From: Pseudomonadales bacterium
Lineage (GTDB): Bacteria > Pseudomonadota > Gammaproteobacteria > Pseudomonadales > Azotimanducaceae
Length of the DNA: 64,000 nt
NCBI GenBank assembly: GCA_965199705.1
Contig: OZ241359.1
Span: 1,183,584 to 1,247,583, forward strand
Direction of reading: 5' to 3'
Part shown: positions 29,613-30,100 of the stretch, in pieces
Numbering within the stretch: position 1 is the stretch's first letter
Layout: each line of letters opens with the position of its first letter
Program-made: the position numbers and the translations under genes
Notes under the pieces: model-generated
The model's database searches: none
Told to the model about the DNA's origin: nothing
What the model saw: the letters and a program-made list of their open reading frames with translations, nothing else

Positions 29613-29846
29613 ATGCGTGAATTGAATCAGAACGAGTTGCAGGCCGCTTCCGGCGGCGTCGCGCCACTGGTGGTCCTTGCGGTTGCGATTGCCTCCCATG
29701 TGGTGCGCCATACCGCAGTGCGCGCCGCTACCAACGGCTTCGGCACGGGCGCGACTGCGGCGGCGGCCGGGCAATACATCCGTGGCCTGGACTTCGGCCG
29801 CAGTGAAGCCGCGGTCAACGGCGCGCAGACCGTCGGCTCGCCTTGA
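29613..29846 (+). CDS. double-glycine-leader (class II microcin/bacteriocin-like) precursor peptide 1, 77 aa
   Basis: ATG 29613 lies 7 nt after GGAG (29602-29605). The leader MRELNQNELQAASGG resembles the colicin V leader MRTLTLNELDSVSGG. The 62-aa Gly/Ala-rich core starts with a hydrophobic helix, VAPLVVLAVAIA. Confidence 0.65.
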   Translation: MRELNQNELQAASGGVAPLVVLAVAIASHVVRHTAVRAATNGFGTGATAAAAGQYIRGLDFGRSEAAVNGAQTVGSP

Positions 29847-29884
29847 TGGCAACACCCACAGATATTCGGATGGAGGAGTACCCG

Positions 29885-30100
29885 ATGCGTGAACTGTCGA
29901 TGAATGAACTCTCAGTCGCCTCTGGCGGCGTTGTGCCTCTGATCGTTTATGGCATTGCTGGCGCGGTGGTCGGCGCGGCGACTCAGATTCTGTTGAGCCC
30001 AAGCCCAAGCACTCCGCAGCCGCAACCGCAGGCGCCACCTCGTGGTTGTCCGGCGCCGGGTTCCGGTTCGGCGCCCAATGGCGCTGGCGCACCCGGCTAG
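29885..30100 (+). CDS. double-glycine-leader (class II microcin/bacteriocin-like) precursor peptide 2, 71 aa
   Basis: ATG 29885 lies 6 nt after GGAGGAG (29872-29878). The leader MRELSMNELSVASGG is 11/15 identical to peptide 1. The core VVPLIVYGIAGAVVGAATQ has GxxxG-like spacing and a Pro/Gly-rich tail. Confidence 0.65.
   Translation: MRELSMNELSVASGGVVPLIVYGIAGAVVGAATQILLSPSPSTPQPQPQAPPRGCPAPGSGSAPNGAGAPG

Follow-up and report, generated by a model that had tools for sequence, protein, structure and literature searches.

The window analysed here is a stretch of 64,000 nucleotides from contig OZ241359.1 (assembly GCA_965199705.1) of a Pseudomonadales bacterium, and our subject is a pair of short genes near its middle, pep1 and pep2, which lie in tandem on the plus strand and encode small precursor peptides with double-glycine (GG) leaders. 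The pep1 gene occupies positions 29613–29846 (ATG at 29613, TGA at 29844–29846) and encodes 77 residues, made up of the leader MRELNQNELQAASGG (residues 1–15, positions 29613–29657) and the predicted core VAPLVVLAVAIASHVVRHTAVRAATNGFGTGATAAAAGQYIRGLDFGRSEAAVNGAQTVGSP. The pep2 gene follows after 38 nt at 29885–30100 (ATG at 29885, TAG at 30098–30100) and encodes 71 residues, with the leader MRELSMNELSVASGG (residues 1–15, positions 29885–29929) and the predicted core VVPLIVYGIAGAVVGAATQILLSPSPSTPQPQPQAPPRGCPAPGSGSAPNGAGAPG. Each gene has its own Shine-Dalgarno sequence, GGAG at 29602–29605 for pep1 and GGAGGAG at 29872–29878 for pep2, placed 7 and 6 nt before the respective ATG, so that the preliminary description of the locus, which had reported two tandem GG-leader paralogues with strong ribosome-binding sites 6–7 nt from the start codons, was correct in these points. 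It was also right that the genes are hidden in longer open reading frames (ORFs) with alternative starts: in the ORF list pep1 appears only within 29580–29846 (GTG start) and pep2 only within 29843–30100 (TTG start). Both products are already called in NCBI/ENA, at 77 and 71 residues, where they are nameless and are singletons at 90% identity.

The two leaders have the common form MRELxxNELxxASGG, with Leu at position -12, Glu at -8, Leu at -7, Ala at -4 and the glycine pair at -2 and -1, and BLASTP aligns the two precursors with 16 of 25 residues identical at the N-terminus (E = 4e-10). The resemblance to the colicin V (CvaC) leader that had been noted earlier, from a correctly quoted sequence, amounts to 9 of 15 identical residues for each of the window leaders; the CvaC sequence used is 100% identical to annotated cvaC genes. 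Both leaders match the regular expression M..Rx[IL]x9G[GAS] given for class II microcin signals (PMC12219008). They also have the general features of a microcin signal, namely a length of 15–18 residues, an end in GG or GA, and hydrophobic and acidic residues at conserved positions. A leader followed by glycine and a hydrophobic stretch could also be read as that of a type IV or Flp prepilin, and this reading was rejected because the FTLIE and G/xxxxEY motifs of those families are absent.

The leader was then used as a search pattern, written as a degenerate DNA pattern for M-R-E-L-x2-N-E-L-x4-G-G. In the 64 kb it occurs at the pep1 and pep2 sites only, and it matched none of 100 dinucleotide-preserving shuffles. 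Among 185,579 species genomes (one genome per species) it occurs in 39 places, with no locus having two matches, so that the window's own genome is not among the hits; we put the information content of the pattern at about 39 bits, which corresponds to roughly two matches expected by chance in the 596 Gb. All 39 places open an ORF of 30–138 residues, most of them with a Shine-Dalgarno sequence, and the cores that follow are mutually unrelated, which argues for a real and widely used leader that is carried by hypervariable cargo. At least 12 of the 39 loci have an ABC transporter gene of 700–1130 residues within about 4 kb, and the ten such genes tested beside MRELxxNELxxxxGG ORFs all encode the combination Peptidase_C39, ABC_membrane and ABC_tran, that is, an ABC transporter with a peptidase domain (PCAT). 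By this genomic association the MREL-type leader is a predicted PCAT substrate signal, in support of the earlier comparison with the colicin V leader, which a C39-peptidase ABC exporter cleaves.

The predicted cores have the compositions that had been described, Gly/Ala-rich for the first and with a Pro-rich tail for the second. Core 1 (62 residues, 6045 Da, isoelectric point 10.7) contains 15 Ala, 8 Gly and 9 Val and starts with VAPLVVLAVAIASHVVRH, reading V-A-P-L-V-V-L-A-V-A-I-A; it has a hydrophobic helix with a VRH motif, a Gly/Ala-rich tail and no Cys. Core 2 (56 residues, 5198 Da, isoelectric point 8.2) contains 12 Pro, 9 Gly and 9 Ala and starts with VVPLIVYGIAGAVVGAA, reading V-V-P-L-I-V-Y-G-I-A-G-A; its helix is followed by a Pro/Gln-rich linker, a lone Cys in the motif GCPAP and a Gly/Ala/Pro tail. 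The AlphaFold2 model has a short leader helix (residues 6–12), a helix of 27 residues (16–42) and a disordered tail, at a pLDDT of 58.

A profile search with the two peptides and their first relatives returned 34 related proteins, and a HMMER profile of 19 sequences run against 1.84 billion cluster representatives returned 340 clusters (50% identity, E <= 0.001), nearly all of 36–130 residues. In 175 representatives the first core residue is I, V or L in 84% and the third is Pro in 84%, followed by hydrophobic residues from +4 to +12, with the reservation that the motif was already present in the search profile, which inflates both figures; among the 39 places of the leader-only DNA scan, Pro at +3 occurs just in L028/L034. 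Both window peptides combine the MREL-type leader with I, V or L at +1, Pro at +3 and a hydrophobic stretch from +4 to +12. On sequence grounds, they belong to a large, uncharacterised proteobacterial subfamily of at least 340 clusters at 50% identity, here called the Pro+3 subfamily, and the designation of the pair as colicin-V-type stands for the leaders and fails for the cores, which are of a different subfamily. The model TIGR03949 matched 15 of 19 subfamily members at E <= 0.01 (best 2.4e-11), several of which carry the NCBI label 'class IIb bacteriocin, lactobin A/cerein 7B family'. The relative P0181 is 47% identical to pep1 over 70 residues (E = 3e-16), and a V[VI]RHxA motif is common to pep1, P0178, P0181, P0191, P0195 and P0206. 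The N-terminus of P0172 has 19 of 33 residues in common with pep2, and a Pro/Gln-rich linker followed by CPAP is found in pep2, P0172, P0176 and P0207. Many cores of the family are neutral or acidic rather than cationic. One further profile match, P0163, is a protein of 1127 residues with about 20 or more tandem repeats of about 24 residues (..CLNYNPLANVSGGVCxPKVYGVMDTA..), in which the profile's leader segment matched ten stretches, probably because the repeat happens to resemble the leader motif '..NxLxxVSGG'.

The two relatives with the core starts most similar to those of the window both lie in clusters with PCAT and membrane-fusion protein (MFP) genes. P0025, with the core start VAPLVVLAVG, is found on three metagenome contigs in the order MFP, peptide, 167-residue membrane protein and PCAT, and P0023 of Shewanella dokdonensis, with the core start VVPLIV, has a further Pro+3 peptide in tandem with it and MFP and PCAT genes as neighbours. 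A Hyphomonas peptide in L036 also adjoins a PCAT. The PCATs beside the relatives retain the catalytic-triad motifs AECGLAC (Cys), HWDxNHFVVL (His) and DPA (Asp). Beside other relatives no PCAT is seen. In marine gammaproteobacteria an operon of three peptides and a membrane protein of about 95 residues has a conserved chromosomal position with no PCAT within 10 kb; L056, L058 and L059 each hold a peptide and a two-helix membrane protein of 65–74 residues, again with no PCAT within 10 kb; and L054 holds P0181, a second tandem GG peptide and a membrane protein of 136 residues, with no PCAT in the roughly 4 kb visible on each side. As a rule, Pro+3 genes lie apart from a PCAT in the loci examined. 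Synteny of the window with the marine three-peptide operon was considered and rejected, the acyl-CoA dehydrogenases being just 28% identical.

In four loci the small membrane proteins encoded beside the Pro+3 peptides share the motif ..WAASCI.lGL..AY[VI]DG....LWKRK and are 38–55% identical to each other (the L060 protein was judged by eye). Their genes lie at 10451–10876 in L057, 11497–11913 in L060, 10321–10518 in L056 and 10405–10629 in L058. Pfam returned sub-threshold matches only for these proteins, which are candidate immunity proteins.

Two of these loci are syntenic with the window. The genes next to the peptides have orthologues in L057 and L060/L061, at 68–69% identity for the beta-lactamase family protein, 89% for the acyl-CoA dehydrogenase and 55–60% for the alpha/beta hydrolase. 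The slot, which lies upstream of the beta-lactamase and acyl-CoA dehydrogenase genes, holds different cargo in each case. In L057 it contains a single peptide, the pep2-like P0172 of 'CPAP' type, with a membrane protein of 141 residues; in L060 it contains three GG peptides, one with a core that starts VAPLVV as in pep1, together with two membrane proteins of 121 and 138 residues, the latter homologous to the 141-residue protein of L057; and in the window it contains two peptides with no membrane-protein partner. Comparison of these loci indicates that the lineage has a fixed chromosomal slot in which the peptide and membrane-protein cargo varies between relatives, and conserved flanks around variable peptide and immunity-like cargo are the pattern expected of bacteriocin loci. 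As to the orthologous peptide pairs for which a check had been suggested earlier, other GG peptides occupy the syntenic slot of relatives, and close orthologues of either core were found nowhere outside strain contigs 99% identical to the window. A metagenome scan for such orthologues returned four loci only, which match just the first 28–36 residues (leader and core start), and tblastn of pep1 against a plasmid collection gave no match.

Downstream of pep2 a hairpin at 30126–30174 (plus strand), whose stem of about 21 bp runs into UUUCCC, lies between pep2 and the convergent beta-lactamase-family gene (30238–31383, minus strand) and is a probable (bidirectional) transcription terminator. The 93-nt stretch that includes it (30098–30190) folds at -50.9 kcal/mol (z = -4.9), and none of 200 shuffles folded as well, although a simple terminator scan did not call it. 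The hairpin was also considered as an integron attC site, which was rejected as it has no GTTRRRY core, and Rfam gave nothing at gathering thresholds, with just one chance match of 15.9 bits at E <= 1. The peptide module of about 1 kb is bracketed by two direct repeats of 20 nt on the plus strand, the left copy CGCCCTGGCGCAATATCCGG at 29191–29210 and the right copy at 30217–30236, immediately past the beta-lactamase-family stop codon. The copies are identical at 18 of 20 positions (19 of 20 in the strain contig L001), and an equally good repeat arose in 0.5% of shuffles; they could mark an insertion or cassette boundary. No copies were found in the syntenic loci L057 and L060.

Upstream of pep1, a perfect 10-nt palindrome, GAGCATGCTC (29603–29612), spans the Shine-Dalgarno region, and the 15 nt AAATATTGGAGCATG at 29595–29609 are identical to the 5' region of a type-A peptide gene of marine relatives, in L028 (57–71) and L052 (about 5995–6011), even though synonymous positions inside the genes are strongly diverged. 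In both of these loci the stretch makes up the 3' arm of a significant hairpin by which the Shine-Dalgarno sequence is sequestered (z = -3.3 in L028 and -5.7 in L052). Such a hairpin was rejected as a shared regulatory element: the window has only a 5-bp GCUCC/GGAGC stem (z = -0.66), the structure is also non-significant in most other relatives, and we do not claim it for the window. A sigma-54 promoter was considered for a conserved TGG..TCC motif upstream and was rejected by eye, the GC element at -12 being absent. Separately, a conserved 5' stretch of about 35 nt (..GCATGCAAGxGTTGxxCTTCCATTCATCAAyTTTCAGGAGG) precedes three peptide genes in two metagenomic organisms (L054, about 3545–3604 and 4019–4078; L056, about 9941–10000). 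It may be a common promoter or operator of the peptide subfamily, and is not evident upstream of the window genes.

The genomic context is non-enterobacterial, as had been stated. Across 5.8 billion clusters no other sequence is more than 70% identical to the CysS protein of the host, the hits with a name being metagenome-assembled genomes of 'Gammaproteobacteria bacterium' and 'Pseudomonadales bacterium', and NadA and other neighbouring housekeeping proteins are nameless singletons at 90% identity, with the exception of one two-member cluster, so that the host is a poorly sampled non-enterobacterial gammaproteobacterium. Four strain contigs derived from the Sequence Read Archive (runs SRR33960549/51/52 and SRR33991098) are 99.0–99.5% identical to the window. 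In the 488 coding nucleotides they differ at two sites, both synonymous changes of Leu codons, with no non-synonymous change; the strain variants of pep1 consist of two synonymous changes only. In the adjoining intergenic DNA, 7 sites vary in 477 nt and 5 in 137 nt. This is mild evidence that the pep1 and pep2 sequences are under constraint. The G+C content at third codon positions (GC3) is 0.76 in pep1, similar to the host genes (0.73–0.83).

Pfam scans of the sizeable ORFs across the whole window identified genes of metabolism, two TonB-dependent receptors, an Opp/Dpp-type importer and insertion-sequence transposases. An insertion sequence of 1957 bp is present in two direct copies (6342–8298 and 58871–60827) that are 99.7% identical and flank the central 50 kb, each encoding a DDE_Tnp_1 transposase of 502 residues. 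The G+C content is mostly 53–58% in 1–22000, apart from 64% in the 6–8 kb bin with the insertion-sequence copy, and about 62–66% in 22001–64000. The low-GC part contains a TonB-dependent receptor, a sulfatase, TetR regulators, an MFS transporter and the insertion-sequence copy, and these first 22 kb may be an acquired island. A pair of 74-nt inverted repeats (38411–38484 and 45629–45702), 97% identical and 7 kb apart, could be an element resembling a miniature inverted-repeat transposable element or a repetitive extragenic palindrome; one arm adjoins a YhgA-like (Transposase_31) gene at 38704–40188.

We consider it probable, with moderate confidence, that pep1 and pep2 encode the precursors of unmodified, membrane-active peptides of class II microcin or bacteriocin type that are exported by a PCAT and served in trans. 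The two genes, 38 nt apart, each with its own Shine-Dalgarno sequence and with one strong hairpin after the second, are probably co-transcribed. The 15-residue leader would be recognised by the C39 cysteine-peptidase domain of the transporter, which together with an MFP and a TolC-like channel would cut after Gly 15 and export cores of 62 residues (6.0 kDa) and 56 residues (5.2 kDa). The V-x-P-L-[VI]-V start and hydrophobic helix of each core would most likely insert into the inner membrane of competitors, and specificity of uptake or of target would probably depend on the tails, which are Gly/Ala-rich in pep1 and Pro-rich with a single Cys in pep2. Presumably both the exporter and any immunity gene would be encoded elsewhere in the genome and act in trans, and the locus would be one variant of a variable peptide and immunity cassette slot of which the position is conserved in the lineage.

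Several observations weigh against this interpretation. The check for an exporter and an immunity gene that had been suggested for this locus gave a negative result within the window: Pfam scans of the sizeable ORFs and a motif scan found no PCAT, no HlyD/AprE-type MFP and no TolC, in a search that covers about 30 kb on either side of the pair. An immunity-like small membrane protein is likewise missing from the window, the pair is not flanked by any small hydrophobic ORF, and tblastn of six partner membrane proteins from the related loci against the window gave no match. The suggested search with double-glycine and bacteriocin profiles left both peptides under every curated cut-off. TIGR03949 is the best-scoring model for both, at 18.1 and 17.7 bits (cut-off 21.5), with matches that span just the leader and the first 12–17 core residues; Pfam MccV (PF17508) scores pep1 at 12.9 bits (threshold 27; E = 0.17, residues 1–51) and Bacteriocin_IIc (PF10439) scores pep2 at 8.4 bits (threshold 27.1). 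A promoter scan found no sigma-70-like promoter upstream of the pair. The GC3 of pep2, 0.61, is below that of the host genes and no better than the 0.64 of an ORF on the opposite strand. Purifying selection is weakly documented because there are no close core orthologues beyond the strains that are 99% identical, and the AlphaFold2 model is of low confidence. No report of activity for any Pro+3 subfamily member was found in the literature searched.

It is unlikely, in our estimate, that the peptides are exported by a PCAT but are not toxins, acting instead as pheromone-like GG signals or, as small peptides of the envelope or outside the cell, having some physiological role for the producer. 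Such a function would agree with a locus that has no immunity-like gene and with the many family cores that are neutral or acidic rather than cationic, although known microcins are likewise mostly neutral or anionic (PMC10233263). GG peptides are described as serving cell-to-cell communication in Gram-positive bacteria (PMC7018657), but no two-component sensor or receptor gene lies beside the peptides in the window or in the relatives examined, and a mature size of 56–62 residues with a long hydrophobic helix is typical of pore-forming bacteriocins and not of pheromones. Across diverged genomes the marine operon of three peptides and a membrane protein has the same chromosomal neighbours and no PCAT within 10 kb, and this stability looks more like a core-genome function than a mobile weapon. 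The peptides of the slot, on the other hand, differ in each relative and are accompanied by small membrane proteins, which fits diversifying toxin and immunity cassettes.

Quite unlikely, in our view, is that the pair is a decaying orphan remnant of a bacteriocin locus, with intact peptide genes and with the exporter, the immunity gene or both lost. An origin of this kind would account for the 64 kb free of exporter and immunity genes, for the membrane-protein partners that the syntenic relatives retain and the window lacks, for the low GC3 of pep2 and for the missing promoter prediction, and in surveys of E. coli about 18% of microcin hits had no PCAT in the assembly (PMC9746304). Against this, the two genes have intact reading frames, Shine-Dalgarno sites and leaders, and none of the four strain contigs shows a non-synonymous change, although intergenic DNA on the flanks is variable. 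Distance from a PCAT is moreover usual for this subfamily and not exceptional. That the two genes are chance ORFs in GC-rich intergenic DNA, which does yield many spurious ORFs, or that the real gene is the antisense ORF of 256 residues at 29388–30158, long as it is and with a GC3 of 0.64, is extremely improbable and already contradicted by homology and synteny: the leader pattern arose in none of the shuffles, the pep1 homologue spans 70 of 77 residues, there are 340 related clusters, related peptides lie at syntenic loci, and the antisense ORF is Arg-rich, as is typical of a wrong frame.

The interpretation as PCAT-exported microcin-like peptides places the pair close to the class IIa microcins of Enterobacteriaceae (V, L, N, PDI and S, exported by a CvaB-type PCAT with the CvaA MFP and TolC). 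Common to both are a Gram-negative producer, a 15-residue GG signal, the absence of modification genes nearby and Gly-rich hydrophobic cores of about 5–6 kDa, and relatives of the window peptides lie beside PCAT and MFP genes, which for class IIa are encoded with the peptide or elsewhere in the genome. The window cores differ in having no similarity to any verified microcin and in lacking a pair of Cys residues at the C-terminus, there being none in pep1 and a single one in pep2. The pair has no PCAT, MFP or immunity gene at the locus or within about 30 kb, whereas the class has a cognate small inner-membrane immunity protein encoded next to the peptide. The verified microcins are not known to have a conserved Pro at core position +3. 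Both cores have the Gly- and hydrophobic-rich character of small unmodified microcin cores, pep2 at 56 residues being slightly shorter than the 60–90 residues of the ten verified examples (PMC10233263).

With two-peptide (class IIb) bacteriocins the pair shares adjacent GG-leader genes and GxxxG-type motifs, GAVVG inside the hydrophobic helix of pep2 and GFGTG and GLDFG outside the hydrophobic helix of pep1. Two-peptide bacteriocins need both peptides in roughly equal amounts for activity and have one immunity gene in the operon, and the window pair has none. The tandem paralogues resemble the operons of the Gram-positive two-peptide bacteriocins on which the TIGR03949 family is defined, and proteobacterial relatives of the pair match the model, but both window peptides score under its cut-off; the literature found under the lactobin A/cerein 7B label is all on streptococci and lactic acid bacteria. 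Because the exporter search covers the 64-kb window, no immunity gene is adjacent and the cut-offs of the models are missed, strict membership of class IIa or of the two-peptide class is not established. The pneumococcal blp locus is a chromosomal bacteriocin-immunity region served by a distant or shared PCAT. Comparable to it, and to the peptide triplet of Xylella fastidiosa, may be the slot, with tandem GG peptides interleaved with small membrane proteins in a fixed position and cargo that differs between relatives; the window peptides differ in having no regulator, exporter or immunity gene beside them. The X. fastidiosa triplet consists of three MccV-like genes lying side by side (PMC10233263), which we liken to the tandem GG-peptide slots. 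Bacteroidetocins of the Bacteroidaceae are also small Gram-negative peptides with a 15-residue GG signal and PCAT dependence, and are reported to have no immunity protein (PMC12219008, PMC10233263); they differ in belonging to another phylum, in a divergent leader and in being encoded near their own PCAT, and no core similarity was seen, though no test was aimed at it.

The statement in the preliminary description that class II microcins are poorly described outside Enterobacterales is out of date. Class II microcins and GG peptides with PCATs are reported to be widespread in Gram-negative bacteria beyond the Enterobacteriaceae (PMC12219008, PMC9746304), candidates are reported from Xanthomonas (PMC13174018), and the Xylella MccV-like triplet and earlier in-silico screens are on record (PMC10233263). 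As GG-leader microcin-like peptides are known outside Enterobacterales, the pair is a fairly ordinary addition to a widespread family. What is modestly new is the Pro+3 subfamily, which appears to be uncharacterised, is usually distant from a PCAT and occupies a slot with variable cargo. A broader and tentative reading, which we regard as possible rather than likely, is that Pro+3 GG peptides form a distinct and widespread, uncharacterised class of PCAT cargo in environmental Pseudomonadota, carried as variable cassettes of peptides and small membrane proteins in fixed slots, distant from the exporter, and with a function that is possibly not killing. If so, the 20-nt direct repeats around the window module would mean that cassettes move as units, and the invariant Pro after the cleavage site would have a specific role in processing or in membrane insertion.

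If active, the pair would extend the fast-growing catalogue of class II microcin-like peptides by two core sequences that are new and come from a gammaproteobacterial lineage sampled only poorly so far. Mining pipelines that require an adjacent PCAT or immunity gene, or that apply curated model cut-offs, would miss both it and most of the subfamily, which comprises at least 340 clusters; most of the loci examined lie far from any PCAT. Current views are not overturned by this, microcin-like peptides having already been reported as pervasive in Gram-negative bacteria. The conserved slot with its variable cargo offers a simple comparative system for the turnover of peptide and immunity cassettes.

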